Below, piece by piece: positions 173-36,875 of a DNA stretch of 64,000 nucleotides. Source of the stretch: Patescibacteria group bacterium (GTDB lineage: Bacteria; Patescibacteriota; Minisyncoccia; UBA6257; HR35). A model generated the notes under the pieces. That model worked only from the letters and a program-made list of their open reading frames with translations. It did not search any database and was not told the origin of the DNA. How positions within the stretch are numbered: the stretch's first letter is position 1; the number at the start of each line of letters is the position of its first letter. The DNA lies in assembly GCA_030549895.1 (NCBI GenBank), contig JAUQQM010000002.1, positions 1,037-65,036 on the forward strand, given 5' to 3'. Position numbers and translations under genes: made by a program.

Positions 173-589
173 CTAAAATTTTAGTTTGCCTTTTTCAAAT
201 TTATAACAAAATAAAAGAAGTAAAAAAATTATTATAAAAATTGTGTCAGTCACAGTGCAATAAAAACAAATAGATTTTAAAACAAAAAATTGAATCCCAA
301 GTAAAATTAAAGCTACAAGAGTGCCACTGAAAGAAATCAATAAAAGAATTTTTCTTTTTCTAAAAGAAAATAAAAAGATAATCAATAAAGCATAAATCAT
401 CCCAAAAATTGAAAGAGGTATATCAAAAATCCTGCTATATTTGCTTTTTAAAACTAAATCACAGCCATTAAAAATTGAACATGAAGATGAAGTTGAATAA
501 GAAAGTTTCGTTAAATATAAAGAAATTAAAAAAGTAATAAAAGCAAGTAGAAAAATCAAAAATTTTAAAATCTTTCTAAGTATAATCAT
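173..589 (-). CDS. Vitamin K epoxide reductase (VKOR) family membrane thiol oxidoreductase (DsbB analogue)
   Basis: 138 aa, multi-TM. It has a loop Cys pair followed by the S-x-Y...G-I-P-type segment (SCSIFNGCDLVLKSKYSRIFDIPLSIFG) and an intramembrane CxxC (CFYC). Confidence 0.75.
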   Translation of the reverse strand: MIILRKILKFLIFLLAFITFLISLYLTKLSYSTSSSCSIFNGCDLVLKSKYSRIFDIPLSIFGMIYALLIIFLFSFRKRKILLLISFSGTLVALILLGIQFFVLKSICFYCTVTDTIFIIIFLLLLFCYKFEKGKLKF

Positions 590-593
590 AATA

Positions 594-1212: not shown

Positions 1213-1220
1213 CAATTTAT

Positions 1221-1226: not shown

Positions 1227-1300
1227 ATTTATTTTCTAAAAATTTTAAAAATTACATAAAAACTAATAGAAAAAGAGGTGTTTTGATATTTAAATAAAAA

Positions 1301-1322: not shown

Positions 1323-1346
1323 CCTCGACCTTTAAAACTTAGTAAA

Positions 1347-1784
1347 TTATTGAGTGGATGTTGTTGTGGTTGGGGTTGGGGTTGATGTAGGTACTCTAAG
1401 TTGCTTACATTCTGTTTTAACTCTCCTCAGTTCTTGATTGAACCACTTGTTTATTTCTTTTATTTCATGAGTATAGGTCTTCTTTATCTCTTTTTTGGCC
1501 TCAGTAGTTGTTGCATTATTATATGCTTCTTTGAAGTTACTTAAAGCCTGTTTTTTCTTGTTCTGCATTTCTTTTGTTAATTCTTGCGCTTTCTTTCCAA
1601 CACAAGCTTTATAAATCCCTGAAGGAGTAGTTGTTGCTGTAGAGATACCCTTTCTAACACCAAACTCTCCTGGTGTTGATGTTGGTCTATAAGAAGGTAC
1701 AGACTTTGTTTTAATAACCAAAGCGAAAGCTGATTGAGTAACTAAGAAGATAGCTAAAGTTATAAGGATAAAGTATTTTTTCAT
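1347..1784 (-). CDS. Small secreted protein: signal peptide, helical Lys/Glu-rich core with 2 Cys, flanked by PTSTP-type Thr/Pro linkers
   Basis: It has a signal-like N-terminus (MKKYFILITLAIFLVTQSAFA) and ends in PTSTPTPTTTTSTQ. It appears monocistronic and has its own strong terminator. Confidence 0.6.
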   Translation of the reverse strand: MKKYFILITLAIFLVTQSAFALVIKTKSVPSYRPTSTPGEFGVRKGISTATTTPSGIYKACVGKKAQELTKEMQNKKKQALSNFKEAYNNATTTEAKKEIKKTYTHEIKEINKWFNQELRRVKTECKQLRVPTSTPTPTTTTSTQ

Positions 1785-1845
1785 GTTAGGGTTAATAAAA
1801 TTTTAATTTTGACTTAGTGAGGGTATTTAAATACTATTAGATTAA

Positions 1846-2151
1846 TTAAACTAAAGGCGGTGAACGAGTGTGAAGTTTACTTGTAAAATTACTTGGCTGA
1901 TATATTTCAAAACACGTAAAGAATTTATCAAAATAATTTTTAAAAATAGTAAGGTTTATTAAAAATAAATTAACTAAAAGAAAAATTAGATAAATTGCGT
2001 TATTATCAGAATAGATAAATTCTAAAATATCATAATTATCAGGATCGAGAGTAAAAATTAATTCTAGGTCTGGATGTTGATAGTTATAAAGAATAACAGA
2101 AAGACCAACAATTCCTGAGATCAATAGAAAGACAACTAAATATTTTTTCAT
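1846..2151 (-). CDS. Hypothetical small membrane protein (2 TM)
   Basis: 101-aa ORF with TGGTATAAT 8 nt upstream of the ATG and two hydrophobic segments. Confidence 0.5.
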   Translation of the reverse strand: MKKYLVVFLLISGIVGLSVILYNYQHPDLELIFTLDPDNYDILEFIYSDNNAIYLIFLLVNLFLINLTIFKNYFDKFFTCFEIYQPSNFTSKLHTRSPPLV

Positions 2152-2159
2152 TATAATTA

Positions 2160-2168
2160 ATTATACCA
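2160..2168 (-). promoter_or_regulatory. Extended -10 (TGGTATAAT), leaderless-type, 8 nt before the ATG at 2151
   Basis: Plus-strand attatacca. There is no SD in the gap. Confidence 0.45.
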
Positions 2169-2197
2169 TAAAATTATAATTAAACCCCGATAATAAT

Positions 2198-2587
2198 ATG
2201 TCAATTCTTACTATAAAAACAAGGAAAAAACGAGAAATAATAGATATTACTGAAGATATTAACAGCTTGTTAAACAATCAAGAAAAAGAAAGTGGTTTAG
2301 TTTACCTTTTTGCCCTTCATACAACTTGTGCTTTAACTACTGCTGATTTAGATCCAGAAACAGATTTAGATTATTTAGATGCTTTCAAAGAAATTGTACC
2401 TAAATTAAAATATCGACATCCTCATAATCCAGAACATTTCCCTGATCATTTTCTTTCTTCACTTGTTGGTACTTCCCTCCTTCTTCCTTTTGAAAATAAA
2501 AGTCTAGTTTTAGGAACTTGGCAAAGAGTAATTTTAATAGAATTTGATGGACCAAGAGAAAGAAAGATTGTTGTCAAAATTATTTAA
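2198..2587 (+). CDS. YjbQ/UPF0047 family protein (secondary thiamine-phosphate synthase-like)
   Basis: 129 aa. It shows the family pattern: I.DIT..I, LFALHTTCALT..DLDPE, HFLSSLVG.SL.LP...L.LGTWQ.V.L.EFDGPR.R. Confidence 0.8.
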   Translation: MSILTIKTRKKREIIDITEDINSLLNNQEKESGLVYLFALHTTCALTTADLDPETDLDYLDAFKEIVPKLKYRHPHNPEHFPDHFLSSLVGTSLLLPFENKSLVLGTWQRVILIEFDGPRERKIVVKII

Positions 2588-3299
2588 TCTCATAAGTAAT
2601 AGTTACTGAAATTTTTATTTCTTGGGAGCCTGGTTCGATTTGAGGTGTTATTCCTGGTACTCCTGCCCCCATCTCTTTTAAAAATACTGGATAAGGTGGC
2701 GGGAAATATCCAGATGATTCTGTTATATTTACAATTTTTCCAAGTTTAAAACCTGCTATTTTAGCAATTTTCTCTGCCTTTTCCTTTGTCTCTTTAATTG
2801 CTTTTTCTCTTGCTTTATCTAAATAGACTTTTTCGTCATCAACTGTAAACTTAGGACCATAGATATTATTAGCACCATTTTGCACTGCCCCACTTAAAAT
2901 TTCTCCAACTTTATTTAAGTTTCTAATTTTTACAGAAAAACCTTGACTAATTGTATAACCAACTATTTCTGTCACTTTATCATATCTATATTTTGGAGTA
3001 ATTGAATAATTTTCTGTTTTTATATCCCTTTCTTCAATCCCTTGACTCTTTAAAAATTGAATTACTTTATTAAACTTTTCACTATTTTCCTTTTGAAGCT
3101 CGATTAAGTCCTTTCCTTCACTAATTAAACCAATATTTAATTCAGCAACATTGGGAAAAATTATTTCTTTAGCTTCACCAGTAACAGAAAAACTTCTTCG
3201 AATTTCTCTACTTTTTGTATATTCATAAACAAACCAAAAACTTACAATAATAAAAAGAAAAATTCCTATAATAATTGAAAATTTTAAAATTTTGCCCAT
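2580..3299 (-). CDS. SIMPL-domain (DUF541) secreted or membrane-anchored protein
   Basis: 239 aa with an N-terminal TM segment. The SIMPL-like repeat pattern includes SVTGEAKEIIFPNVAEL... and ...EIKISVTITYEI. Confidence 0.7.
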   Translation of the reverse strand: MGKILKFSIIIGIFLFIIVSFWFVYEYTKSREIRRSFSVTGEAKEIIFPNVAELNIGLISEGKDLIELQKENSEKFNKVIQFLKSQGIEERDIKTENYSITPKYRYDKVTEIVGYTISQGFSVKIRNLNKVGEILSGAVQNGANNIYGPKFTVDDEKVYLDKAREKAIKETKEKAEKIAKIAGFKLGKIVNITESSGYFPPPYPVFLKEMGAGVPGITPQIEPGSQEIKISVTITYEIK

Positions 3300-3304
3300 T
3301 TTAA

Positions 3305-3313
3305 ATTATAACA
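3305..3313 (-). promoter_or_regulatory. Extended -10 (TGTTATAAT), 5 nt before the SIMPL ATG at 3299
   Basis: Plus-strand attataaca. It overlaps the ndh stop codon. Confidence 0.45.
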
Positions 3314-4508
3314 CCCTCTTAAAAAATAAGAAGGAAATTAAATTTTCTAAAATTTTTATCTTATGAGGAAACGAAATCATCTTAACTAAATAAATAAACC
3401 TTTTAAGAAGAGAAACAAAAAATCCAGAAATAAAAATGTTAAAAATTTGAGCAACAGCATAATAGAAACCAAGAGAAATAATATCGCCGGAATGTTTATA
3501 TTTAAAAGTTTTTTTATTATTTAAATTCTTGATATTGAAAGCAAGAACTTTTGCTTGTTTAGTAGCGACTTGGGCTGATTGACTTAATTGTCTTTGATTT
3601 TCTAAGAAACAAGCAATATCTCCAAGACAAAAGACGTCATTATAAGCCTCCGAATTTGACTTTAAAAGTTGAAGATTTTCATTAACTAAAAGTCTACCGC
3701 TGTTATCTTTTAAAAAATCTCCTATAATTTCTGGAAGATTTGCTTTTATACCTGCAGTCCAAATAGTAGTTCTTGTATAAATAATCTCATCTCCTAATTT
3801 AACAAAATTTTCACCTACCTCAGTAACAATTTTACCTAAAATCAACTTTATACCTTTTTCTTTTAACTTTAATAAAGCTGCTTTACGCATTTTTTCTGAA
3901 AATTGAGTCAATATTTCATTTTTTCCTTCAACTAAAATTATTCTTATCCTTTCTAAAACTTTTTTTGAAATTTTATTTTTCATTATTCTAAAAAATAAAT
4001 CACTTAAATTTCCGACAAGTTCAACGCCCGTCGCTCCACCTCCAACAATAACGAAAGTTAAAAATTCATCAAAGTTTTCTTTATATTTTTCTTTTTCAAA
4101 AATTTCAAAAATATGATTTTTAAGTTTTAAAGCTGAGTCTAAACGTTTTAAAGACCAGCAATTTTCTTTCCCAATAATATTATAGTAATTAACTTCCGCG
4201 CCCAAACAAATTACTAAAATTTCATAATTTATTTCTTCTTGATTAACATAAACAAGTTTTTTATTTAAATCAATTTTATTTACTTTCCCAGAAATAAACT
4301 TAAACCGCAATGATTTTGATATTTCCTTGAAATAAACTCTTACAGCCTCCTCACTAACAAAGCCGCAAACAAAATCGATTAATAATGGAGTAAATAAAAA
4401 ATATTCATTATCGTTTACTAAAATAACCTCATTTTTATTTAAAAATTTTCCAAGATATTTTAAAGTGTAAATACCTCCAAAACCCCCACCTAAAATCAAA
4501 ATTTTCAT
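3306..4508 (-). CDS. ndh: Type II NADH:quinone oxidoreductase (NDH-2), FAD-dependent pyridine nucleotide-disulfide oxidoreductase
   Basis: 400 aa with two dinucleotide-binding motifs (KILILGGGFGG and FVIVGGGATGVE) and a hydrophobic C-terminal membrane-anchoring tail. Confidence 0.8.
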   Translation of the reverse strand: MKILILGGGFGGIYTLKYLGKFLNKNEVILVNDNEYFLFTPLLIDFVCGFVSEEAVRVYFKEISKSLRFKFISGKVNKIDLNKKLVYVNQEEINYEILVICLGAEVNYYNIIGKENCWSLKRLDSALKLKNHIFEIFEKEKYKENFDEFLTFVIVGGGATGVELVGNLSDLFFRIMKNKISKKVLERIRIILVEGKNEILTQFSEKMRKAALLKLKEKGIKLILGKIVTEVGENFVKLGDEIIYTRTTIWTAGIKANLPEIIGDFLKDNSGRLLVNENLQLLKSNSEAYNDVFCLGDIACFLENQRQLSQSAQVATKQAKVLAFNIKNLNNKKTFKYKHSGDIISLGFYYAVAQIFNIFISGFFVSLLKRFIYLVKMISFPHKIKILENLISFLFFKRVL

Positions 4509-4515
4509 AATTAGA

Positions 4516-5316
4516 TTATTCTTGGTTTTGAAACCTTAAAATACAACTATTATATTCTTTAACCTTTAAATTATAATCTTCAATAAAACTTTTTGTTTTT
4601 ATAATAAGCTCATTATAAGAATGAACTTTTCTATTATACTCGTCAATTAAAGAAAGGACTTCATAAGGATTTTCATTTTTTGTTATCCTTTCTAAAAGAT
4701 CATCTAATTCCTTTTTTAAAATTTCTATCTTATTTTTATTTTCATTTATTCTGGTTTGTAAATCTTCTGATGGTTTAGGGCATAAATCTTCAGGACTTCC
4801 AAAATGTTGAACAAAAACATATACTTCTTTTCCTTTAAAATTACCTTTTACAAAACCTACACCAAGATGATAGAAATTTTTATTTAAAATATTTTTTCTA
4901 TGAGGGGGGCTTTCCATCCAATCTCTAACTACTTCCTCCTCTGATTTTGGCCTACCCATAAACAAATTTTCTCCAACAATTATAAACTTGTAATTTGAAT
5001 CAATTATAAAATCTGTAAAATTCTTTCCAGATGGACTTTTATGATCAAAATATTGATTCAAAAGAATATCCTCTGCTTTTCTTTGAGCGCTTAAATCAAG
5101 CTTCTGGTCTGAAATTAAATCTTGAAGACCGTTTTGTCTTCGGTAAAAATTAGTATAGAAAATTATTTTTTCTTTATCAAATTGGTTGTCTTCAAAAGAA
5201 ATTGAGGTCGTTGAAAAATTTTTCTTTAACTCATTTAAAACTGGCTGTAAATTTTGATTATTCTTTGACAATAAGATTAACAATATAAGAATTATTAAAT
5301 TTTCTATTTTACTCAT
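4516..5316 (-). CDS. Secreted CAP/SCP/PR-1 domain protein with a C-terminal coiled coil
   Basis: 266 aa. CAP motifs are present: YFDHKSPSG, GENL, WMESPPHRKNILN..Y.HLGVG. Confidence 0.75.
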   Translation of the reverse strand: MSKIENLIILILLILLSKNNQNLQPVLNELKKNFSTTSISFEDNQFDKEKIIFYTNFYRRQNGLQDLISDQKLDLSAQRKAEDILLNQYFDHKSPSGKNFTDFIIDSNYKFIIVGENLFMGRPKSEEEVVRDWMESPPHRKNILNKNFYHLGVGFVKGNFKGKEVYVFVQHFGSPEDLCPKPSEDLQTRINENKNKIEILKKELDDLLERITKNENPYEVLSLIDEYNRKVHSYNELIIKTKSFIEDYNLKVKEYNSCILRFQNQE

Positions 5317-5663
5317 TAATAAGGGCAGTCAGCTTCTTTGGCTAAAACTTCTAATTTTTGAAAACCTACAAGCCTTTTACCATTTTTAAATTCCCAGGTT
5401 GGTACTGAAGTAATATTAAAACACCTCTCCTTTTCTTTAGTGCACTCAATATAATTTATGTATCTAAAACTTTTTCCAAATGAATTTTTTTGCTTTTGGC
5501 AATAAGGACAATAATATGTACCGTACATCACTACACCTTTTTGGCTAAGACAAATAGCTAAATTTTTTATTTTTTCATTTTCTTTAGATGGTTGAGAAAA
5601 AATAGAAACAAAAATTATAAAAATAAAAATTAAAAAGAAAATTAAAAATACTCTCTTACTCAT
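5316..5663 (-). CDS. Membrane-anchored thioredoxin-like protein, matching the Trx-like domain fused to cyanobacterial or actinobacterial VKOR
   Basis: 115 aa with an N-terminal TM segment. It has VVMYGTYYCPYCQKQKNSFGK...YIECT...C...ITSVPTWEF.NG.R..G...LE.LA, with a CPYC active site. Confidence 0.7.
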   Translation of the reverse strand: MSKRVFLIFFLIFIFIIFVSIFSQPSKENEKIKNLAICLSQKGVVMYGTYYCPYCQKQKNSFGKSFRYINYIECTKEKERCFNITSVPTWEFKNGKRLVGFQKLEVLAKEADCPY

Positions 5664-6132
5664 TACAGCAATCTATTAATTTTTCGATCACCTGTTGAAG
5701 TTTGTTTTTTTCTTTTATCTCCTTTATATCTTCGATTTTAATTATGTTAAATTTTAAACCAAAAAATAAATTAAAAAGTTCATAAGCAGACTCATAAAAA
5801 CTTTTCGCCTCATCTTTTTTTCCTTCGGAAAATAATTTTTCTCCAACTTCGAAAAATCTATAAACTGCACCCAAAATGTGTTTGGAACAGCACCAAAGTT
5901 CTCCTTCTGGTTCTTTAATAATTTTTGTCATTGCATCTTTTCTTATGTTTCTTACCTTTTCTATTAAATCTAAATATTCTTCTTTCTTTGTTTTTTCATA
6001 AGTAAAATAAAAATGTTCTTCTAAACTTATAAGATGCATAATTGCTACAGCTAAATCTTCTTGAGCTTCAAAATTAATTTTTTCTTTTTCTTTGAACTCT
6101 CTAATTTTTTCAATTAGTTCATCCAAACTCAT
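5656..6132 (-). CDS. Hypothetical cytoplasmic helical protein with two vicinal Cys pairs (WCCSKH and C-terminal DCCNE)
   Basis: 158-aa ORF between ccdA and the Trx-like gene. TGGTATAAT lies 5 nt before its ATG, and its 3' end overlaps the Trx-like gene start by 8 nt. Confidence 0.5.
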   Translation of the reverse strand: MSLDELIEKIREFKEKEKINFEAQEDLAVAIMHLISLEEHFYFTYEKTKKEEYLDLIEKVRNIRKDAMTKIIKEPEGELWCCSKHILGAVYRFFEVGEKLFSEGKKDEAKSFYESAYELFNLFFGLKFNIIKIEDIKEIKEKNKLQQVIEKLIDCCNE

Positions 6133-6137
6133 AAAAA

Positions 6138-6146
6138 ATTATACCA
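6138..6146 (-). promoter_or_regulatory. Extended -10 (TGGTATAAT), 5 nt before the ATG at 6132
   Basis: Plus-strand attatacca in the 18-nt gap after ccdA. Confidence 0.45.
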
Positions 6147-6150
6147 TAAT

Positions 6151-6816
6151 CTAGCTCAAAAGCACAAAAAGACCTAAAGCAAAAAATATCAGGCCAGAGA
6201 TAATTCTGTAAGTCTTAATTGATCTTTTTTTAATGATTTCAATCTTTTCTATATATTTTGTTGAAAGAAAAAGAATCAAAATAAGGGGTAGAATAAAAAT
6301 TAAATTGTAAATAAAAAGGTAAAAAAGTCCTTTAATAAAAGTAGTTTTCTCGTTCAAAAGACTAAGAACAAAAAAATAAGGACCCCCAGTGCAAGGAAAT
6401 TCTGTTGAACCAACTAAAAAACCTAAAATAAAACTTGAACTAAATGAAGCTCGACTAATTAGACTAGCAATAGTTTCTTTTGCGCCCTCAATTATTTGAG
6501 GTCTTATAGGAAAATTTTTAAAAATTGCTCCTAACAGTTCAATTAGACCATAAAAAATAAGAATGGCTGAAGTAATTTTTGAAATAATCCTTGGAATTCC
6601 TAAAATATTAAATACTTTTAAAATCCCAACTCCAATTAAAAAATAAGTAAGGAAGATAGCAAAAATATAAACAAATCCAACTTTAAAAATAAATTTTTTA
6701 TCCTCTTTATTTACTAAAAGAAAAGAAAGAGTAATAATTAAAACAGAAATAGCACAAGGATTAATACTATCTAAAAAGCTGCTTATGATGATTACAAAGA
6801 TATCTTTAAATTCCAT
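6151..6816 (-). CDS. ccdA: CcdA/DsbD_2-type thiol:disulfide electron-transfer membrane protein
   Basis: 221 aa, 6 TM. The two conserved membrane Cys motifs are present: DSINPCAISVL and EFPCTGGPYF. Confidence 0.7.
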   Translation of the reverse strand: MEFKDIFVIIISSFLDSINPCAISVLIITLSFLLVNKEDKKFIFKVGFVYIFAIFLTYFLIGVGILKVFNILGIPRIISKITSAILIFYGLIELLGAIFKNFPIRPQIIEGAKETIASLISRASFSSSFILGFLVGSTEFPCTGGPYFFVLSLLNEKTTFIKGLFYLFIYNLIFILPLILILFLSTKYIEKIEIIKKRSIKTYRIISGLIFFALGLFVLLS

Positions 6817-9158: not shown

Positions 9159-9164
9159 AATTTA

Positions 9165-9173
9165 ATTATATCA
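9165..9173 (-). promoter_or_regulatory. Extended -10 (TGATATAAT), 6 nt before the ppsA ATG at 9158
   Basis: Plus-strand attatatca. It lies across the rdgB stop codon. Confidence 0.45.
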
Positions 9174-9774
9174 TTTCAAATAATTCTTTTACTTTTAAAA
9201 TAAGTTTTTGGGTTGCTATTTTTCGATGAGAAAAAATTTCTTCATCTTGATTTAATTCATCGTAATACTTATTTAAACCTTCTACTATAAAAACAGACCT
9301 AAAAGGATACCCAGGAATTCTATTTTTACTAGGTTCTCTAGCAATATAGCCTTTAATTTTTTCTTGCTGGCAAATTATATTTTTGCCGTCATAAAAACAA
9401 ACGCAAGTCTCTAAATAAGCAGTTCTTTCTGAGACATTTTCCATCTTTTTAAGTAAAAATTCAATTAACTCTTCATCAGTTGCCTCATACCCCGGCCAAC
9501 GCCTTGATTTAACTCCTGGCTCATTACCAAGAGCAGGAATAATAAGACCACCATCATCTCCAATAGTTGGAATTTTAAACTTTTCATAATAAAATTTTGC
9601 TTTTAAAATTGCATTCTCTTTAAAAGTTTGGCCATTTTCTTGTGGTTTTTCTTTAAAATTAAAATCATAAAGAGAAAGCACTTCTAATTCTGGCAAGAGC
9701 TCATTAATGACTTCTTTTATTTCCTTTATTTTTCCAAAATTACTACTTCCAATAAGAATTTTTTTCGGTCTCAT
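9166..9774 (-). CDS. rdgB: Non-canonical purine NTP pyrophosphatase (RdgB/HAM1 family)
   Basis: 202 aa with a family-typical N-terminus (ILIGSSNFGKIKEI) and an overall HAM1 pattern. Confidence 0.8.
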   Translation of the reverse strand: MRPKKILIGSSNFGKIKEIKEVINELLPELEVLSLYDFNFKEKPQENGQTFKENAILKAKFYYEKFKIPTIGDDGGLIIPALGNEPGVKSRRWPGYEATDEELIEFLLKKMENVSERTAYLETCVCFYDGKNIICQQEKIKGYIAREPSKNRIPGYPFRSVFIVEGLNKYYDELNQDEEIFSHRKIATQKLILKVKELFEMI

Positions 9775-9780
9775 ATTTTA

Positions 9781-9789
9781 ATTTTAACA
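9781..9789 (-). promoter_or_regulatory. Extended -10-like box (TGTTAAAAT), 6 nt before the rdgB ATG
   Basis: Plus-strand attttaaca. Confidence 0.4.
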
Positions 9790-9942
9790 AAGTACTAAAG
9801 TTAAATAAATAGTGATATATTCGCTTGGCCAAATCTGAGCTCAAAAAGTTAGTTTACCAAACTTAGGAAGAATAAATATCTTTTTCGAGAGTAATTTCGC
9901 TTCATTATTTTAAAATTCGCTACTGAAATTAGATTTTTCATA

Positions 9943-9951
9943 TGTTAAAAT
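9943..9951 (+). promoter_or_regulatory. Extended -10-like box (TGTTAAAAT), 6 nt before the argS ATG
   Basis: tgttaaaat followed by taaaat and then ATG. Confidence 0.4.
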
Positions 9952-9957
9952 TAAAAT

Positions 9958-11541
9958 ATGAAAAATGAACTAGAATTAAAGCTTAAGAAATTATTTAAAA
10001 CTAAAGAAAGACCTCAAGTAAGAGTAATCCTAAATGAGTATGGTGATCTTGCTTCAAATGTTCTTTTTATTGCTGCTAAAGAAAATAAAAAAGAACCTAA
10101 AAAAATTTGGGATGAATTTAAGGATGAAGTAGAAAAAAGACTGGCTAAAAATTTCGAAAAAATTGAATTTGTTAATGGTTATTTAAATTTTCACCTAAAA
10201 AAAGATTTGCTTTTCAAAACATTTAAAATTGCGGTAAAAAAACCAAAGCAAATATCTCTTTCTAATTTCGGACATAAACAAAAAGTAATAGTAGAATTTC
10301 TTTCAGCTAATCCGACTGGTCCTCTGCATTTAGGAAATGGAAGAAATGCGGTTCTAGGTGAAGTTATCTCAAGAGTTCTTAAAAAAACTGGATTTTCTGT
10401 TTTTAAAGAATACTATAACAATAACAGAGGCAGACAAATAAAAATTCTTGGTCTGAGTGCTCTTTCTTTTTTAAAACTTCCAACGGAAAACGAAAATGAG
10501 CTTTATAAAGGTAAATACCTCGAAGAATTAGTAAACAAAAACAAGGGTCTTTGTTTTAAATTTAAAGATCAACCAGAATATCTTGGCTATCTTTTAAGTA
10601 AAAAAATATTAGAATTTTACATCAAACCAACCTTAAAAAGTCTTGGCATAAAATTTGATAATTTCTTTTCTGAAAGATCGCTTTATAGTTCTCTTGATAA
10701 AGAAGTTCTTCAAAAAATCAAAAGACATACTTACAAAAAGGATGGTGCTTTATGGTTAAAACTTGAAACTAAAGATGAAGTTTTAATAAAAAGTGATGGA
10801 GAACCTACTTATTTTCTTTCAGACATTATTTATCATTATCATAAATTTGTAAAAAGAAACTTCAAATATGGAATTAATATTCTAGGTGCTGATCATTTAG
10901 ATCATGGAAGAAGACTAAAAGAAGCTTTAAAAATTCTTGGGATAAAAGAAAATAAACTAAAATTCATTATCTATCAGCTTGTTTATGTTAAAAAATTTGA
11001 AAAAATTCTAAAAATGTCAAAAAGAAAAGGAGATATTATCTTTTTAGATGACCTTATAAAAGAAGTTGGACCTGATCCAATAAAATTTTACTTTGTTTTT
11101 CATCCACCAGAAACTCATCTTACTTTTGATCTGGAATTAGCAAAGAAAAAAACAGAAGAAAATCTTTATTGGTACGTAGTCTATACAGGTGCCAGACTTG
11201 AGAGTATTTTAAAGAAATTTGGAAAAATCTCTAAAAAAGAAATTGATGTTAAAAAATGTTGGGAAATTTTCAAAGATAATAAGCAATTTATAGAAATCCT
11301 GAAAAGAATTTATTTTTGGAAAGAAATACTCATCGAAGTAGCTAAATCTTTACAAGTTCAAATTCTTCCTCAATACATTGTTGAAACATGCAAAAAAATA
11401 AATAACTTTTATGAAAGTGAAAAAATAATAGAAAAAGATAGATCAAAAACTTATCAAAAATTACCTGCAATAATTGCTTTAGTTAATTTTCTTAAAGAAG
11501 CTTTTGATACTCTTAATATAGAGTTCAAAGAAAAAGTTTAA
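9958..11541 (+). CDS. argS: Arginyl-tRNA synthetase
   Basis: 527 aa with the HIGH region SANPTGPLHLGNGRNA and the KMSKS-like loop KMSKRKG. Confidence 0.9.
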   Translation: MKNELELKLKKLFKTKERPQVRVILNEYGDLASNVLFIAAKENKKEPKKIWDEFKDEVEKRLAKNFEKIEFVNGYLNFHLKKDLLFKTFKIAVKKPKQISLSNFGHKQKVIVEFLSANPTGPLHLGNGRNAVLGEVISRVLKKTGFSVFKEYYNNNRGRQIKILGLSALSFLKLPTENENELYKGKYLEELVNKNKGLCFKFKDQPEYLGYLLSKKILEFYIKPTLKSLGIKFDNFFSERSLYSSLDKEVLQKIKRHTYKKDGALWLKLETKDEVLIKSDGEPTYFLSDIIYHYHKFVKRNFKYGINILGADHLDHGRRLKEALKILGIKENKLKFIIYQLVYVKKFEKILKMSKRKGDIIFLDDLIKEVGPDPIKFYFVFHPPETHLTFDLELAKKKTEENLYWYVVYTGARLESILKKFGKISKKEIDVKKCWEIFKDNKQFIEILKRIYFWKEILIEVAKSLQVQILPQYIVETCKKINNFYESEKIIEKDRSKTYQKLPAIIALVNFLKEAFDTLNIEFKEKV

Positions 11542-24968: not shown

Positions 24969-25883
24969 ATGCTAATTTTTCTTCAAAGAATTTTAAAAAA
25001 CGGTTGGAAAAATTTTATCAGAAATCCTCTTTTAAGTCTAGCAGCAAGTTTTATAAATTCTTTGATGATTTCAACGATGATAGGACTTATAGTTTTTTCT
25101 GCTTTTTCCAACATTTTAATAAAATATATTCAACAAAAATTAGATCTTTCAATCTATTTTAAAGAAACAGTCTCTGAAAATCAAATAAAATCTTTACAGG
25201 CAGAACTTTCAACTTTTGATTTTATCGAAAAAATAAATTACATCACTAAAGAAGAAGCTCTTGAAATTTTTAAAGAAAAAAATAAAGACAATCCCCTAAT
25301 TTTAGATGCCCTTGAAGAGTTAGGTAGTAATCCACTTTCAGCTTCTTTTGCTATTGTAACAAAAAAACCTGAAGACTACGAGAAATTAGCTCAATTTCTT
25401 AGGACCTCTAAATATAGAAATATAATTGAAGAAATTACTTTTTCAAGAAATAAAGAAATAATAGATAGGATTGTCAGCATTACCAATCAGGGTAAAAAAA
25501 TAATCTTTTTTATCATTTTTACCATCTCTTTAATAGCAATCATTGTTATCTTTAACACTATAAGAATAATTATTTTCTCCCAAAGAAGAGAGATAGAAAT
25601 TATGCAACTTATTGGTTCTTCAAAAAATTTTATTAAATTTCCTTATTTAGTTACCTCTACTCTTTATGGAATTTTTGGGATTATCTTTGCCGGAATAATA
25701 ATTTCAATTCTCTCAATGCTTCTTTCGCCATTCGTTGACAAGCTGATAACAAACTTTTCTCTTAAACAATACTTAATTGAAAATTTATCTTTGCTTCTAC
25801 TTTTAAGTTTTGCTTTTTCAGTTATCATCAACAACATCGCTACCTGGATAGCTATAAATAGATACCTTAATCTAAATAAATGA
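24969..25883 (+). CDS. ftsX: FtsX-like ABC permease (cell-division type, 4 TM with a large extracellular loop)
   Basis: 304 aa with the N-terminus L..ILKNGWKNFIRNPLLSLAA, one TM, a loop of about 130 aa and three C-terminal TM segments. No ftsE is adjacent. Confidence 0.75.
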   Translation: MLIFLQRILKNGWKNFIRNPLLSLAASFINSLMISTMIGLIVFSAFSNILIKYIQQKLDLSIYFKETVSENQIKSLQAELSTFDFIEKINYITKEEALEIFKEKNKDNPLILDALEELGSNPLSASFAIVTKKPEDYEKLAQFLRTSKYRNIIEEITFSRNKEIIDRIVSITNQGKKIIFFIIFTISLIAIIVIFNTIRIIIFSQRREIEIMQLIGSSKNFIKFPYLVTSTLYGIFGIIFAGIIISILSMLLSPFVDKLITNFSLKQYLIENLSLLLLLSFAFSVIINNIATWIAINRYLNLNK

Positions 25884-27109
25884 TTGAAAAATCTCAAAAA
25901 GGTTTCACTTTAGTAGAACTTATCGTAAGTGTTGCAATTTTAAGTATTTTAGCTACCTCGGTAATAATAATCACAAATCCAGCGGAACTAATGAAACAAG
26001 CAAGAGACTCACGAAGAATTTCAGACCTTACTGCTCTTTCAACAGCAATATCCTTTTATACAAATTCAGTCTCGCCTCCAAATATGGATGGTGTCGGAAA
26101 TTCAACTTGCAAAGATGGCTCAAATAAAAAAGTTTATGTTTCTGTTCCTAGTAATCAAACACCGCCCTCAAATCTTCCTCCAGGCTGGAGTTATGGACAA
26201 ACTTCTGAAACAAATTTAAAAAAAGTTAATGGTACTGGTTGGATACCTATTAATTTTACTTCAGTTATTGGTGGGCCACCAATTTCAGCTTTACCAATAG
26301 ACCCAGTTAATTCATTTTCAAAAAATCTATTTTATTCTTATACCTGCAGTTCAAATGGTAATTTCGAGCTTACAGCAAGATTTGAATCAAAAAAATATAA
26401 TCTAAATGGTTCTAATCCTCAAACAGTGCTTGACGGTGGCACAGATAGGACAATTTATGAAGTTGGCTCTGATTTAACCTTAGATCCATTTTCTCCTGTC
26501 CTTGAACTTTCCTTTGATGAAAGAACAGGCACAATCGCTTATGATAGCTCTGGAAATAATAATCATGGAACTTTATATAACGGACCTCAATGGGTAGATG
26601 GTAAAGTAGGCAAAGCTTTAAGTTTTGATGGAAGTGATGATTATGTAGCTGTTAACGATCCATTTTCTAACAACGTTAATTTTTCAATTGTTTTATGGGT
26701 AAATACGCGAGTAATAAATGACGGTTTTTATCATGGTTTCATTGGTAAACAAGGTGATGCATGTAGAAAACCAGGAATGTGGTTAGCTCCTAGTAGTAAT
26801 GGTCTCCATTATGATTCTTATGATTCATCATGCTCAAATAGGTTCTATAATATTTACGCTAACTTTTTTGACGGTTCTAATATATGGCATCACATAGTAT
26901 GGGTAAAGAATGGTACTACATATCATTTTTATAAAAATGGCGGTCTATTTGGAACCGCCACTGCTCCAAATAATTTTTATACAGCTAATACAAGTTACTG
27001 GATTGGAAGAGTCGATAATTTTTGGAATGGCCTCATCGACGAAGTTAGAATTTACAATCGCGCCCTTTCTGCTGAAGAAATTAAAGCTATATATGAGGCT
27101 ACTAAGTGA
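25880..27109 (+). CDS. Type IV pilin-like (pseudopilin) protein with a C-terminal LamG/concanavalin-A-like domain
   Basis: Prepilin signal KG/FTLVELIVSVAILSIL. LamG-type tail: GKALSFDGSDDYV...WHHIVWV...LIDEVRIYNRALSAEEI. Confidence 0.8.
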   Translation: MIEKSQKGFTLVELIVSVAILSILATSVIIITNPAELMKQARDSRRISDLTALSTAISFYTNSVSPPNMDGVGNSTCKDGSNKKVYVSVPSNQTPPSNLPPGWSYGQTSETNLKKVNGTGWIPINFTSVIGGPPISALPIDPVNSFSKNLFYSYTCSSNGNFELTARFESKKYNLNGSNPQTVLDGGTDRTIYEVGSDLTLDPFSPVLELSFDERTGTIAYDSSGNNNHGTLYNGPQWVDGKVGKALSFDGSDDYVAVNDPFSNNVNFSIVLWVNTRVINDGFYHGFIGKQGDACRKPGMWLAPSSNGLHYDSYDSSCSNRFYNIYANFFDGSNIWHHIVWVKNGTTYHFYKNGGLFGTATAPNNFYTANTSYWIGRVDNFWNGLIDEVRIYNRALSAEEIKAIYEATK

Positions 27110-31769: not shown

Positions 31770-32942
31770 ATGAGAAAAGTTTACCTTGATTATGCAGCTA
31801 CAAGTCCTGTTGATGAAGAAGTTTTAAATGAAATGATGAAATTTTTTAATATTGACTTTGGAAATCCATCAAGTCTCCATTTATGGGGACAAAAAGCTCT
31901 AATTGGTCTTGATAGCGCAAGAATAAAATTTAAAGAACTTTTAAATGCTAAAGAACTAAAGGAAATAATTTTTACTAGTTCAGCAACGGAATCTAATAAC
32001 TTTATCATTAAGGGGCTGGTCTTTGTTTGGTTATTTAAAAAAAGAAAAAAACCACACATTATTTCTACAACAATTGAGCATGAATCGATTGAACAAACTT
32101 TAGAAGAACTTAAAAACTTAGATCTAATAGAGCTTGATTTAGTTAGTCCAAACAAAGATGGCTTTATCGATCCAAAAAATATAGAAAATTACATAAAAGA
32201 AAATACTCTTCTTGTAAGTGTAATTTATGTCCAGAATGTAATTGGCACAATTCAGCCTATAAAAGAAATAGCTCAAAGACTGAAAGAAATTAACAAAGAA
32301 AGAAAAGAAAAAGGACTAAACGAGATTTACTTTCATACTGATGCAGCTCAAGCTGGTCTTACAGAAAATTTAAACATTCAAGAATTAGGAGTAGATTTTT
32401 TGACTCTTTCTTCTCATAAAATTTACGGACCAAAAGGAGCAGCGTTAGTGTACAAAAGAGCTGATATTGAAATCTTGCCTCTCCTTTCTGGACCAGGACA
32501 AGAATTTGGTCTTCGTTCAAGCACAGAAAATGTTCCAGCTATTTATGGTTTTGCTAAAGCATTTGAAAAATTTTATCCAAAAAGAAAAGAAAATAACAGT
32601 TATCTTTTTGAACTTAAAAATTATTTTTTAAATGAAATAAAAAAAATCTATCCAAAAGTTCAAGTAAATGGTGCTCTTGAAAATTCATGTCCTAAAATTT
32701 TAAACCTTTATTTCCCTGATTATCTTTCTCAAGAAATTCTGATAAAACTTGATTTAGAAGGTATAGGAGTTTCTATCAGTTCAGCCTGTTCTGTTCGAGC
32801 ATCAAAACCAGATAAAATAATCTTAGCTCTTGGTCACAGTCAAGAAAGAGCTCAAAAAAGTATTAGATTTTCTTTTGGACTTAAAACAACTTTTGAAGAA
32901 CTTTCTTATGTAATTGAAACTCTAAAAAAAATAATCAGTTAA
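31770..32942 (+). CDS. Cysteine desulfurase (NifS/IscS class V aminotransferase)
   Basis: 390 aa with the PLP-Lys motif SSHKIYGPKG and the active-site Cys loop SSACS. Confidence 0.9.
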   Translation: MRKVYLDYAATSPVDEEVLNEMMKFFNIDFGNPSSLHLWGQKALIGLDSARIKFKELLNAKELKEIIFTSSATESNNFIIKGLVFVWLFKKRKKPHIISTTIEHESIEQTLEELKNLDLIELDLVSPNKDGFIDPKNIENYIKENTLLVSVIYVQNVIGTIQPIKEIAQRLKEINKERKEKGLNEIYFHTDAAQAGLTENLNIQELGVDFLTLSSHKIYGPKGAALVYKRADIEILPLLSGPGQEFGLRSSTENVPAIYGFAKAFEKFYPKRKENNSYLFELKNYFLNEIKKIYPKVQVNGALENSCPKILNLYFPDYLSQEILIKLDLEGIGVSISSACSVRASKPDKIILALGHSQERAQKSIRFSFGLKTTFEELSYVIETLKKIIS

Positions 32943-33949
32943 GGGGCAATTTCTCTTATATCAAGAAAACATTTTTGAGTACACTCTTGGTAAGTAGGAA
33001 AGACATATTTTTCGGTTGGTGTTTTGCCTGGATTACTAATACAGAAACCATAAAAACATCTGTACCAAGTGGTTTCTGTATTTATAGAAACTTCAGAAGA
33101 AATTTGACTTGCTGGGGGACAAGAAATTAAAGTATCAGTGATACTACAATCAGCTGATTGAGCTAAACAATTTATAGTATATCCACCGTATTGATGATAA
33201 AAATCAGGTGAGGTAGTAACAAAAACTAGCCCTGTCGTTGAAGCATCACTAAATAACAATATAGAATTATTATTATTGTTTTTATCTGTAAAAGTAAGAC
33301 TGCAAGAATTTTCAATTAAGTCATTAGAGGTCCAAAAAAGAGCATATTCACTTATTCTTCTTACATCAGCAGCTGTAGTAGAAACTTGAGTATTTGGAGG
33401 AGAGCTTGTGACGTATCTTCCTGCCCAAGCAGTTTTAGTAGCCTTATCATATCCAAAAAAATCAAAAGTAGTACTAGCAACTAACTGACCAGAAATAGAA
33501 AGAGCTGAAGAGGTATTATAATAAACAAGAAAAGAAAGAGAGGGTGTAGTACTTACTATAATAAAATCAAAGGAAGAAACCAAAGCTTTTTGATCAGTTT
33601 CATTTTGTAAGTATATATTAAGGGTAGTAGTTACAAATGTAGACTCAAGTGCACTAATAGTACCAGTTACTAAACTTTCAGAAAAAGTACTTATTTGAGT
33701 AAAAAAATAAACATAACTAAGAGAGCAAGGTACATCGGTACAACTTGTGCTAGTAATCACTAAATTATTTCTTTTTGCTTCCAAATAAATTCCATTAATT
33801 TTAACATTAGGGTCTGTTGTATAGACAATTGAAAATTCATAACTTTTTCCAGCTACAAAAACATAAACAGCTTTTACAAAATTAAAAATGATAAAAGTAA
33901 AAATCAATATTACTCCTATAACAATTAATTTTTTTACAATTAACTTCAT
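32939..33949 (-). CDS. Secreted or anchored Ser/Thr-rich beta-type protein with a Cys-rich C-terminal module; no recognised family
   Basis: 336 aa with an N-terminal TM/signal segment, 13 Cys and the C-terminus YRCFYGFCISNPG...YQECTQKCF. Confidence 0.6.
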   Translation of the reverse strand: MKLIVKKLIVIGVILIFTFIIFNFVKAVYVFVAGKSYEFSIVYTTDPNVKINGIYLEAKRNNLVITSTSCTDVPCSLSYVYFFTQISTFSESLVTGTISALESTFVTTTLNIYLQNETDQKALVSSFDFIIVSTTPSLSFLVYYNTSSALSISGQLVASTTFDFFGYDKATKTAWAGRYVTSSPPNTQVSTTAADVRRISEYALFWTSNDLIENSCSLTFTDKNNNNNSILLFSDASTTGLVFVTTSPDFYHQYGGYTINCLAQSADCSITDTLISCPPASQISSEVSINTETTWYRCFYGFCISNPGKTPTEKYVFPTYQECTQKCFLDIREIAP

Positions 33950-33952
33950 ATC

Positions 33953-35455
33953 CTAAAATCCTAATAAATTAGATATAAAATTCCTAATTGTGTTAATTAT
34001 ATTAGAAAATATATTCCCCCTCTCACTGTTTTCAGATTCAATTTGTTGAGGAATGCTTATTTGTTGTTCATCTTGATTTAAAGTATTCTGCTGTCTTTGT
34101 AGTATTCTATAAGATGAAGGTTGATTTAAGGATGGGATAGTTTGAACTTCTTTGTTTACTTTAGCTTCTACACAGAAATAATTAAATTCACTCATCCAAA
34201 AATCAGGATTTTGACAATAATCTGATCCATCAGTTAAGTTTTTCTTTTTTTCATTACTAAAGAAATAAAACTTAAGTGTACCTGTTGTCGGAATAGAAGA
34301 AGTTGAAAAATTAAGAGTAATACTGTTAGGTGTAGAACTAGGAGAAACTGTAATAAAACTATTACTAGGACTATAACCAACGTTTGAAACATTTGTAGGA
34401 TAAATCCCGCCGCGATTCATAGATGCATTAATACAAGGAACAACTATATAATCATTTTTTATATCTTTTAAAGTTAAACTAAAAGTTTGATTATTCTCAG
34501 TTATAGTTGTAATAAAAACACATTTATTAGGAACTAATTTAATATTACCACCCTGACCTTGAGCTTGTTGAATATACAAAACAAAATTATTGCCTGGTGA
34601 AACTGTACCTCTAGGTGCGCTGGTAGCAATAATGTCAATTGATGAACTAGCAAGAAGATAAGATGAATCTAAAGAGGATGAAGAGTAAATATAAACTTCT
34701 GCTTTCGTTTTATTATCTATCATCCTGTTAAATACAGACGAGGACGAAAAATCATAAATAGCTGTCATTTCTTTCTTTTCTGAATCTAGGTTTATTCTTA
34801 CTGTAGTTGCATAATATTCATTTCCTATTTGAAACTTGTAATAAAAATCTTTATCGCTATAAGTTGAAGTAAGAGAAGAAGTAACATAAAATTTAAAGCG
34901 AAGATAGTTAGGAGTAATAACATTTTGAGCTTGTCTATCCCATATATATTGAGGGGAAACAGCAAAAGACTCAATTGAAGCTAATTTCACTCCTCCTGAA
35001 ACTGGGTTAATTTCAAGTGTAAGAAGAGTATAGTCTTGTAGTTTAATATTTAAATAAAGAGTTTGGAGTTGATCATTTCTATACTCAAAACTTATAGTAC
35101 ATACAGAACTGGTAAGGTTACAACTACCTATCGAAACGGTAAAGTAATTAAAGAATGTATGAGTTGAAGTTGTGGCAGTCAACCTCTTTATAGCTAGAGT
35201 TGTAGTTGAAACTAAGGAAGAAAAACTAGATGAAGTACTAACTTCCAAAATTAGAGGACTGCTTGAAACACTATTAAGGTCAAAATTAAATTCTAATGTA
35301 TAATCAACCTTAGTATAAGTAGGAAGGTCAATATTTGTAAAACCAAAAAGAATTCCTTGACCTTGAGCTAAAAGAAAGCTTAAAGGAGTAAGAAAAAGGA
35401 TTAAAAGGATAAATTCTTCTAAAAGACTAAAAAAATGTCTAGGATAAAGTTTCAT
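33953..35455 (-). CDS. Secreted Ser/Thr-rich beta-type protein with a Gln-rich, amphipathic C-terminus; no recognised family
   Basis: 500 aa with a signal-like N-terminus. It shares the motif S-C-x(4-6)-C-[ST]-[IL]-S-[FY]-x-Y ... LNI.LQ[DN] with the downstream 336-aa protein. Confidence 0.6.
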   Translation of the reverse strand: MKLYPRHFFSLLEEFILLILFLTPLSFLLAQGQGILFGFTNIDLPTYTKVDYTLEFNFDLNSVSSSPLILEVSTSSSFSSLVSTTTLAIKRLTATTSTHTFFNYFTVSIGSCNLTSSVCTISFEYRNDQLQTLYLNIKLQDYTLLTLEINPVSGGVKLASIESFAVSPQYIWDRQAQNVITPNYLRFKFYVTSSLTSTYSDKDFYYKFQIGNEYYATTVRINLDSEKKEMTAIYDFSSSSVFNRMIDNKTKAEVYIYSSSSLDSSYLLASSSIDIIATSAPRGTVSPGNNFVLYIQQAQGQGGNIKLVPNKCVFITTITENNQTFSLTLKDIKNDYIVVPCINASMNRGGIYPTNVSNVGYSPSNSFITVSPSSTPNSITLNFSTSSIPTTGTLKFYFFSNEKKKNLTDGSDYCQNPDFWMSEFNYFCVEAKVNKEVQTIPSLNQPSSYRILQRQQNTLNQDEQQISIPQQIESENSERGNIFSNIINTIRNFISNLLGF

Positions 35456-35492
35456 CTTTTAAAATTTTAATAAAAATTCTAATAAAATCAAG

Positions 35493-36875
35493 CTAATTTG
35501 TGGATTTCCTAACTTTTGGCCCAGAAATTGTATCTATAATTTCATAACCTAAAGATTTTATTTTTTCCCTTATTTTATCTGCTTCAACAAAGTTTTTATT
35601 TTTTCTTAAAATTTCTCTTTCTTGAATTAAATTTCTTATCTCTTCTGGAAGTTCATCAATTTTTTTATATATTTCCTCATCAAGATTAAGGCCGAAAATT
35701 TGATCAAAATAAAGTAGGGTTCCAATTTTTTCTTCTTGAGAAAGATCGCTTCTCAGCATTGTCCAGACATTAGAAAGAGCCTCTGGAAAGTTGAAATTGT
35801 CATTTATTTTCTCTAAAATTTTATTCTTCCAAAAATCATTTACAACCTCTTTTTTTTCGAAACCAGAAACAATCTCTCTTAATCTTTTTAAAGAGTTTTT
35901 TGAACTTTCTAAGGCTTCAAAAGAAAATTCTAAAAATGACTGATAATGACAAGAAAGAACAAGATATCTAAAATCTAATGGACTAAAGCCTCTTTCTTGA
36001 AGATCTTTCACTAAAATTACATTTCCCTCTGATTTGGCCATTTTCTTTTGATTTTTAAGAACAAGAAAATTGACATGAATCCAGTAAAAAACAAAAGGAA
36101 TTTTTTCTGTAGCTGCTTCTGATTGAGCTATTTCATTTGTATGATGAACTGGAATATGATCAATGCCACCACAATGAATATCAAATTGCTCTCCTAAATA
36201 TTTCATCGACATTGCTGAACATTCTATATGCCAACCAGGAAATCCAACTCCCCAAGGACTATCCCATTCCATTTGTCTCTTTTTTTCTTTTGGGGAAAAT
36301 TTCCATAAGGCAAAATCTGTTGGATTCTTTTTTTCGCCAATTTCAACTCTTAGGCCAGGAATTAATTCAATTTTTTTTCCTACTAATTTACCATAATCTT
36401 TTAGTTTAGAAGTATCAAAATAAATTCCATCTGAAGTTCTGTAAGTATATCCTTTTTTTTCTAAAATCTTTATAAGATCAATCATTTCTTTTATATGCTC
36501 AGTAGCTTTAGGCATATAATCTGGCATTAAAATGTTTAATTTTTTAAGATCATCTAAAAATGCGTTTGTATAAAATTCAGCTATTTCCCAAGCAGATTTT
36601 TTTTCTTTTTGAGCAGAAAGTTCAACTTTATCTTCTCCTTGATCTTGGTCATCAGTCAAATGCCCAACATCGGTAATATTCATTACATGCACTACCTTGT
36701 AGCCATTTAATATCAAAGTTCTTTTTATTAAATCTTCAACTATATAAGTTCTAAAATTTCCTATATGAGCAAAATCATAAACTGTCGGTCCACAAGTATA
36801 CATTCCAACAGGATATTTAAAAGGTACAAATTTTTCTACTTTCTTTGCTAAAGTATTGTAAACAAAAAGATCCAT
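35493..36875 (-). CDS. cysS: Cysteinyl-tRNA synthetase
   Basis: 460 aa with the HIGH region [15 protein letters not shown] and the KMSKS region KMAKSEGN. Confidence 0.95.

Follow-up and report, generated by a model that had tools for sequence, protein, structure and literature searches.

This account concerns two adjacent genes in a stretch of 64,000 nucleotides (nt), which we call the window, from a Patescibacteria group bacterium (assembly GCA_030549895.1, contig JAUQQM010000002.1, positions 1,037 to 65,036 of the forward strand). The organism is a member of the candidate phyla radiation (CPR), Candidatus Paceibacterota, which bears out the reduced bacterium that an earlier note, made from the letters of this DNA, had supposed. 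The first gene, A, encodes 500 residues (33953..35455, minus strand) and the second, B, encodes 336 (32939..33949, minus strand). They are co-oriented, A upstream of B and 3 nt apart, just as the earlier note described them. A and B turn out to be consecutive pieces of one protein, which in a related genome is a single open reading frame (ORF). The parts of the pair, from upstream of A to the end of B, are given below, with confidence values from AlphaFold2 (AF2) models as predicted local distance difference test scores (pLDDT), immunoglobulin and fibronectin type III abbreviated as Ig and FN3, and a slash marking the cleavage site in signal peptides.

35464..35504, minus strand: promoter-like block upstream of A, TCCACAAATTAG-C-TTGATT-N16-TAAAAT, with a -10-like hexamer ending 8 nt before the ATG
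35357..35455, minus strand: predicted signal peptide of A, about residues 1-33, probably cleaved after LLA or AQG
34154..35356, minus strand: mature beta-rich body of A, residues 34-434, with conserved Cys pairs C112/C119, C312/C341 and C414/C428
34019..34153, minus strand: Q-rich low-complexity linker of A, residues 435-479, P/Q-rich in orthologues, AF2 pLDDT 21-29
33956..34018, minus strand: C-terminal amphipathic helix of A, GNIFSNIINTIRNFISNLLGF, residues 480-500 (21 residues); AF2 places a helix at 473-498
33950..33952, minus strand: A-B spacer GAT, 3 nt from the stop codon of A to the start codon of B
33869..33949, minus strand: predicted signal peptide of B, residues 1-27, MKLIVKK-LIVIGVILIFTFIIFNF-VKA/V; AF2 places a helix at 2-23
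33554..33868, minus strand: domain 1 of B, residues 28-132, modelled as an Ig/FN3-like beta-sandwich with a C70/C75 hairpin
33188..33553, minus strand: middle region of B, residues 133-254, conserved across four lineages, pLDDT below 50
32942..33187, minus strand: C-terminal Cys-rich module of B, residues 255-336, with 7 Cys (eight counting the upstream C216)

The pair sits in a setting that recurs in its relatives, which we number L001 to L009. On the same strand upstream of A come the gene for cysteinyl-tRNA synthetase (CysRS, 35493..36875), TatD and DUF763, while downstream of B there is a convergent class-V aminotransferase (31770..32942) whose stop overlaps that of B by 4 nt. The window is 25-33% G+C throughout, in a genome of 28% G+C. 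The spacer between A and B is 3 nt in the window, L002, L005 and L008, and 19 nt in L001. No Shine-Dalgarno sequence for B is conserved among the orthologous loci compared and this, together with the 3-nt spacer, suggests that the translation of B is probably coupled to that of A. No intrinsic terminator or terminator-like hairpin was found after B, and the window holds no paralogue of either gene elsewhere. CysRS and the aminotransferase, which is cysteine-desulfurase-like, flank the pair in the window, L001, L002, L004 and L005, that is, in all lineages; the link between Cys-related flanking genes and a Cys-rich pair is probably coincidental.

In amino acid composition the two proteins are outliers. 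Ser and Thr make up 22.8% of A and 24.7% of B, against about 10% of most other ORFs in the window, and Lys and Glu about 8% of both, against about 20%. A and B are acidic, S/T-rich and beta-rich proteins, and the earlier note's picture of Ser/Thr-rich, Cys-containing proteins (6 Cys in A, 10 in B) is accurate. An excess of N-glycosylation sequons is not part of that picture: A has 7 where 9.5 would be expected, and B has 3 where 4.6 would be. In both proteins the N-terminal hydrophobic segment is the only one, and the C terminus has none.

The export signals proposed in the earlier note hold up well, judged from sequence features: the hydrophobic segment, the residues at the cleavage site and comparison with orthologues. 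Small residues occupy positions -3 and -1 in A (LLA/QGQG) and in B (VKA/V), and AF2 draws a helix at residues 11-30 of A, within the predicted signal peptide. The signal peptides of A orthologues have canonical n, h and c regions ending in FAQ/Q, FS/QQ or SS/Q, with sites such as VFA/QQ and IFS/QQ; those of B orthologues end in LFA/QQ and AFA/E. The cysteines are conserved in position, and every protein has an even number of them: A has 6, or 8 in the case of L001, B has 10, and a fused protein from L004 has 16. A conserved even complement of 6 plus 10 is what 3 plus 5 disulfides would predict; the bonds themselves we infer. L001 A (8572-9981) carries an extra pair, C-x-x-C at residues 323-326, which brings it to 8 Cys with the parity still even.

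How A and B are related is seen in L004 (GCA_964621695.1, contig CAZUNJ010000015.1), where the slot between CysRS and the class-V aminotransferase (Aminotran_5) is filled by a single ORF, 3126..5246. The ORF is interrupted by a scaffold gap of 100 N (3632-3731), on either side of which the same 44 nt stand in frame. The duplicate marks overlapping contig ends left unmerged, and as a result the public gene call, P0007, is only 378 residues long and the fusion was hidden. Once the 100-N gap and the 44-nt duplicate are collapsed, the fused protein is 658 residues long. Residues 21-313 align with residues 28-346 of A (E = 7e-19) and residues 375-658 with residues 29-336 of B (E = 9e-52); the A proteins of L005 and L008 align with residues 21-382 (E = 2e-29 and 6e-26, respectively). 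The junction between the two parts, ...YYCVSALLNFGTTVPSRYYKFETRKNYSF..., falls within the called gene P0007, about 600 nt past the gap, where the sequence is unbroken. A and B are, then, consecutive pieces of one protein that is a single ORF in L004.

Compared with the split forms, the fused protein is short of exactly three things: the low-complexity linker of A, the terminal helix of A and the signal peptide of B. Its B-like part begins exactly at the predicted N terminus of mature B (RYYKFETRKNY in L004, VYVFVAGKSYEF in the window). The split arrangement, with the same synteny and the same A-B order, is found in all three other lineages, and the pair has what one looks for in genes related by fission or fusion: a collinear single ORF, the same slot and a junction in uninterrupted sequence. 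Most simply, the fused form would have arisen by one in-frame deletion of about 95 codons that took out tail, stop codon and signal peptide. As a mechanism, such a deletion is simpler than the joint gain of tail, stop, start and signal peptide, which is an argument and not a result. The position of L004 among its relatives depends on the gene consulted: it is the outlier by the aminotransferase (69-72% identity), and by CysRS it is nearest the window (78% against 71-72%).

Outside this handful of genomes, the two proteins have almost no company. Pfam, NCBIfam and PHROGs contain no family to which they belong, whether scanned with single sequences or with all 12 family members, and the weak matches that arise (LBP_BPI_CETP at E = 0.23, OprB, Arrestin_N and others) each appear in one member only. 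Ig, FN3, Big and CARDB-type Pfam families give no match at E<=10 in the 12 members, and NCBIfam gives none. Searches of the PDB by sequence and by profile found no relative (the best single-sequence matches, at E = 0.07-0.1, are unrelated proteins). The earlier note had recognised no family, and that judgement stands. A word-indexed search of 5.8 billion clusters with A and with the A-family profile returned only A itself and a 90% variant; with B it returned B itself, an 88% variant and one 41% relative. An exhaustive HMMER search of 1.84 billion representatives with the B profile gave 4 proteins (clusters). At the level of loci, we found one in 185,579 species-representative genomes (the metagenome-assembled genome (MAG) of Candidatus Paceibacterota bacterium isolate RSWP11), four in JGI metagenomes and none in IMG/VR. 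A viral origin was considered and set aside, there being no relative in IMG/VR. The loci fall into four Paceibacterota lineages: the window with L002, L003 and L006; L001 with L007; L005 with L008 and L009; and L004. Genome and cluster comparison agrees with the earlier note that the proteins are lineage-specific. A/B is a tiny orphan family, new at the sequence level.

Nor do the proteins carry any of the familiar devices for holding on to a cell. An LPXTG sortase anchor is absent from both, which also have no C-terminal hydrophobic segment. There is no lipobox in either, the first Cys being residue 112 in A and residue 70 in B. The type IV pilin signal PF07963 is in neither A nor B, and the same search finds it in the product of another gene in the window, 25880..27109. 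Pfam and NCBIfam scans gave no profile match for SLH or other S-layer families.

What A does have is its tail. The earlier note saw an amphipathic helix at the end of A, preceded by a Gln-rich segment. In 5 of 5 orthologues no other part of the protein matches the helical hydrophobic moment of this helix (0.52-0.81), and only 4-146 of 5000 shuffles reach such values. A ends in GF in four of the five; in the window the last residues are ...NFISNLLGF. P/Q-rich segments equivalent to the linker occur in L001, L005 and L008 and are missing from the fused L004 protein. Linker and helix together are kept in all three split lineages and gone from the fused form. The helix is a candidate in-plane membrane tether or, alternatively, a B-binding element. 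The A proteins of L005 (469-2181) and L008 (511-2235) are longer, at 570-574 residues, by virtue of an extra beta-rich insert of about 100 residues (around 410-520), placed after the conserved YYC...W.I that closes the body and before the P/Q linker. The insert implies that domains are gained or lost at the stalk end of A.

Structure prediction gave an uneven return. The AF2 models were built from shallow alignments and have a mean pLDDT of 47 for B and 40 for A. The body of A is modelled as all-beta at this low confidence, and Foldseek matches its model (pLDDT 40) only to tandem Ig-like architectures with template-modelling (TM) scores of 0.1-0.3. Residues 30-132 of B are the only confidently modelled region of either protein, with pLDDT 70-88 and nine strands. 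Foldseek searches of the PDB with domain 1 returned folds of FN3 and IgV type at E values of 5e-5 to 1e-2, with TM scores of about 0.5 on single-domain targets (0.45-0.6 when normalised to the target). The matches include the FN3 pair of 2ha1 (E = 5e-5) and, at about 1e-3, the IgV domain of NKp44, an FN3 domain of CbhA and others; in BFVD, Ig-like proteins match at 1e-5 to 1e-3. We are confident that the model of B 30-132 describes a generic Ig/FN3-like sandwich, which is a structural class and not a sequence family. The beta-rich character noted earlier is borne out in both models, and the fold search it called for gave a confident answer for B 30-132 only.

The middle region of B contains the conserved blocks ADVR+I..YA.FW....IENSCSL.F.D and VTT.P.FYHQ. 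The C terminus is near-invariant in all lineages, the fused form included, as WYRCFYGFCI...KY.FPT..C.QKC.LD..E.AP-COOH (...CFLDIREIAP in the window). The cysteines of the module are spaced C261-x6-C268-x8-C277-x20-C298-x4-C303-x19-C323-x3-C327, and no family match to it was found in Pfam, in HMMER searches with the B profile or in PDB profile searches.

The DNA upstream of A is conserved in a way that A itself is not. A promoter-like block with the consensus TCCACAr-N5-yTTGATTTT-N14/15-TAAAAT is present at all 6 loci from the 4 lineages, and its -10-like hexamer stops 8-12 nt short of the ATG. Column identity averages 81%, though the A proteins are only 23-32% identical across lineages. Besides the window, the block lies at about 8520-8571 in L001, 3075-3125 in L004, 418-468 in L005 and 460-510 in L008. 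It is retained in L004, where the upstream CysRS gene is inverted (and still adjacent). The extended motif occurs once in the window, where the block overlaps the last CysRS codons. A -10-like hexamer so close to the ATG suggests a leaderless or near-leaderless mRNA, and the arrangement as a whole suggests that A/B is its own transcription unit. A regulator might act at the conserved TCCACA element that lies ahead of the -35-like hexamer.

The two genes change several times faster than those around them, which is what one expects of exposed proteins. When the window is compared with L001, identity is 71% for CysRS, 41% for B and 25% for A. In the comparison with the strain L002, nonsynonymous divergence (dN) reaches 0.047 in A and 0.069 in B, while 13 neighbouring genes show 0.002-0.020. 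The ratio to synonymous divergence (dN/dS) is 0.61 for A and 0.36 for B, compared with 0.01-0.15 for the larger neighbours (the short genes SpoU and NusB reach 0.32 and 0.26). Blocks near or above 1 are A 201-250, A 401-500 and B 251-300, each with few substitutions. Within B, the ratio of nonsynonymous to synonymous differences (pN/pS) is 1.03 for residues 251-300 and 0.13 for residues 301-336, again on small counts. These data amount to fast evolution and not to proven positive selection.

Where might the disulfides come from? As the earlier note pointed out, a VKOR homologue lies in the window, and A and B would most likely receive their disulfides from it. Its gene belongs to a neighbourhood of extracytoplasmic thiol-redox genes (173-6816, minus strand):

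173..589, minus strand: VKOR homologue, PF07884 at E = 3.9e-17 and 63 bits against a cut-off of 27.5, with 4 hydrophobic segments and CXXC
2580..3299, minus strand: SIMPL/DUF541 protein
3306..4508, minus strand: NDH-2-like Pyr_redox_2 protein
5316..5663, minus strand: exported CXXC thioredoxin-like protein, Thioredoxin_2 at E = 2e-4, below the cut-off
6151..6816, minus strand: DsbD_TM/CcdA-like protein with 6 transmembrane segments

Two small ORFs in the same neighbourhood (594-1082 and 1347-1784, minus strand) have no Pfam family. The ORF at 1347-1784 encodes 145 residues with a signal peptide and 22.8% S+T; that at 594-1082 encodes 162 residues with 3 hydrophobic segments and lies directly upstream of the VKOR gene. 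A search of the literature on VKOR in Patescibacteria and on Cys-rich surface proteins found nothing relevant. Elsewhere in the window, at 25880-27109 (plus strand), a 409-residue protein combines PF07963 (E = 7e-9) with a C-terminal LamG/concanavalin-like domain (PF13385, E = 1e-20), next to FtsX (24969-25883, plus strand). On its domains, this protein would be a better-founded adhesion candidate than A/B.

We can say firmly that a single lineage-specific, fast-evolving, beta-rich protein is made up of A and B as its two chains, both exported and probably disulfide-bonded. Our fuller reading, to which we give a probability of about 0.5, is that this may be a multi-domain beta-sandwich protein, exported by Sec and stabilised by disulfides, that is confined to a narrow clade of Candidatus Paceibacterota and works by tethering and docking. 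The pair would be transcribed as one unit, with B translated by coupling. Both chains would cross the membrane by Sec and be cut by signal peptidase I, after which the VKOR-based system would oxidise them to give 3 plus 5 disulfides. The flexible P/Q-rich stalk of A, together with the amphipathic helix at its C terminus, would fasten it to the cytoplasmic membrane on the outer side. Mature B would dock non-covalently on the end of the globular body of A, at a site corresponding to the interdomain junction of the fused form. The variable Ig-like domains would serve as exposed spacers. The functional end would be the C-terminal half of B, which is conserved and finishes with the Cys-rich module; it may bind a ligand, itself conserved, that is carried by a partner cell or by the bacterium's own envelope. 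A surface or adhesion role is plausible for such a protein.

It is tempting to go further, and to see in A/B a two-chain, membrane-tethered adhesin of this narrow clade, of a type not described before. In that bolder version, the disulfide-knotted C-terminal module of B (WYRCFYGFCI...C.QKC.LD..E.AP) would be a new host- or partner-binding fold. Splitting the polypeptide would be an adaptive change in display: A, having gained its linker and helix, would be the tethered stalk, and B, having gained a signal peptide, the head that can detach. We regard this as a speculation with rather poor odds.

Several observations weigh against the tether-and-dock reading itself. The fused relative has no tail, so tethering by the helix cannot be essential to the function of the family, and the helix might be an oligomerisation or B-binding element instead of a tether. 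The AF2 models are poor, leaving the multi-domain Ig-like architecture firm only for B 30-132. The fused form is known from a single MAG contig. Promoter-like hexamers are common at 28% G+C (21 found against 14.5 expected), and the -10 spacing is consensus-based. The VKOR gene is about 32 kb from the pair and serves all exported proteins; the redox genes, 27-32 kb away, have no specific link to A/B. An overall dN/dS below 1 also fits relaxed constraint, and the block values rest on few substitutions.

Of the alternatives, two remain and two are unlikely. A and B may be released, soluble exoproteins (an effector, a toxin or a scavenging binder), the helix of A serving for oligomerisation or for insertion into a target membrane. 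Such a role would sit well with the missing anchors (no LPXTG, lipobox, C-terminal transmembrane segment, SLH or other known wall-anchoring signal) and with a fused relative that has no tail of any sort, and disulfide-rich small modules are common in secreted binders and toxins. It sits badly with a P/Q-rich stalk and terminal amphipathic helix that are kept in all three split lineages, and that resemble peripheral membrane tethers such as the C-terminal helix of Escherichia coli PBP5. We also found no toxin or enzyme motif and no small, immunity-like gene adjoining. Release in soluble form strikes us as improbable, though it deserves to be kept in mind.

Less probable still is that A and B are structural proteins of the envelope, part of an S-layer-like lattice or a wall scaffold with no part in partner recognition, their fast evolution the product of phage pressure or weak constraint. 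The strongly conserved promoter-like block, with a transcription unit apparently its own, would suit an envelope component, as would two tightly coupled genes, which suggest a fixed stoichiometry. An acidic, S/T-rich and beta-rich composition is, moreover, that of many S-layer proteins. Against this, neither SLH nor any other S-layer family matches, and a core envelope component would be expected in sister Paceibacterota and not in four lineages only.

The earlier note had suggested another explanation: that A and B are divergent paralogues sharing an N-proximal module. They would then stem from the tandem duplication of a gene that carried this module, a Cys hairpin. By eye, it matched VSIGSCNLTSSVCTISFEY and LYLNIKLQD in A with ITSTSCTDVPCSLSYVY and TLNIYLQNE in B. 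These peptides are all present, as are NIFSNIINTIRNFISNLLGF and YRCFYGFCISNPGKTPTEKYVFPTYQECTQKCF, quoted from the ends of A and B, and in each protein a C-x(4-8)-C hairpin does precede, at some distance, a T-L-x-[IL]-x-[IL] strand, both features being conserved within the protein's own family. The resemblance does not survive closer scrutiny. The hand-picked segment scores 35 by Smith-Waterman, where composition-preserving shuffles score 25.6 +/- 5.0; the resulting p of about 0.05 is uncorrected for the choice of the segment by eye. For the N-domains as such, the shuffle test yields p = 0.3. A BLASTP comparison of the two proteins has E = 2.6, and an all-against-all comparison of orthologues has a best E of 0.34 with inconsistent registers. 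Comparing hidden Markov models with hhalign gives a probability of 1.7% with 3-sequence profiles and 5.9% with 6-sequence profiles, the latter aligning signal peptides only. There is, in other words, no statistical similarity between the two, one of the outcomes that the earlier note had named as refuting its view, and here it bears on the paralogy. A high Smith-Waterman z-score for L005 A against B we discounted as a long, low-identity, composition-driven alignment whose register differs between lineages. The hairpin and the strand are 16 residues apart in A and 35 in B, and in the single ORF of L004 the two proteins are consecutive, non-equivalent parts. A and B are similar in composition and both probably consist of beta-sandwich domains, which would allow a very ancient homology at the level of domains; paralogy in the sense of the earlier note is very unlikely.

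That the L004 ORF is an assembly artefact, and A and B unrelated neighbours, is scarcely credible even with the fusion seen in one MAG contig and a scaffold gap within the same ORF: some 600 nt of unbroken sequence lie between the gap and the junction downstream of it, the junction removes tail, stop codon and signal peptide precisely in frame and connects the last part of the globular body of A with the predicted N terminus of mature B, as a mis-join would not, and A-B pairing and order are conserved in all other lineages.

Why should so small a family matter? Attachment of CPR/Patescibacteria to partner cells is little understood, and the candidates are mostly lineage-specific, exported hypothetical proteins like A and B. 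For this pair there are now some useful facts: the split/fused relationship, with a single-ORF relative that proves collinearity, and a conserved tail that occurs only in the split forms. A and B can be treated as one functional unit with a domain plan (Ig-like spacers, an invariant Cys-rich end, and a stalk with an amphipathic tail), a conserved promoter-like block and fast-evolving parts that would be exposed. The pair would be a tractable target in Paceibacterota enrichments. With only four lineages and a function that is putative, the family is narrow and its wider impact limited unless a host ligand is found.

How does the pair compare with systems already described? Episymbiotic Paceibacterales have lineage-conserved arrays of hypothetical genes with signal peptides, proposed, and not shown, to act in host interaction (Kuroda et al. 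2022, PMC9600506, PMC9763046). A and B come from the same bacterial class and fit that description, the comparison being by description only: adjacent, unannotated genes with Sec signals in a narrow lineage. A part for A and B in contact with partner cells would agree with that proposal. They differ in forming a two-gene unit that is really one split protein, and in having no pilin-type signals and no adjacent pil genes.

Bacterial surface proteins built of tandem Ig or FN3 domains (Big, FN3 and SrpA-type) are a second point of reference. The predicted fold of B 30-132 is theirs, and the adhesin SrpA is among its Foldseek matches. A and B are likewise exported, S/T-rich and fast-evolving, and the model of A has weak matches to tandem-Ig proteins. 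Unlike these proteins, A and B fall outside the Ig, FN3 and Big profiles and have neither LPXTG nor another known anchor; their domains are probably disulfide-bonded, they are two chains, and the Cys-rich end is unique to them.

For the tail of A, the nearest analogy is with the low-molecular-weight penicillin-binding proteins (PBPs), of which E. coli PBP5 and PBP6 are anchored to the membrane by a C-terminal amphipathic helix. A would resemble them in being exported by way of a cleaved signal peptide and in having, at its extreme C terminus, some 20 residues that form an amphipathic helix. There the analogy ends: A has no homology to them and no enzyme domain, a long P/Q-rich linker precedes its helix, and it has a fused relative without the helix. 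The end of B, for its part, bears a local likeness to Kunitz/BPTI inhibitors, small disulfide-rich domains whose cysteines are spaced C-x8-C-x15-C-x7-C-x12-C-x3-C. The shared motif is FYGxC...F.T..EC...C, that is, aromatic-Y-G-x-C followed by F-x-T-x-Q-[ED]-C-x-x-x-C. B has C298-x4-C303-x19-C323-x3-C327 where the inhibitors have C-x7-C-x12-C-x3-C, there is no PDB profile match, and PF00014 does not match at E<=10 in 6 members; we rejected the Kunitz reading on these grounds, and B is not a member. Set beside these systems, A and B are new as a sequence family but of a kind already known, namely candidate surface proteins of CPR bacteria that are lineage-specific, exported and Ig-like.

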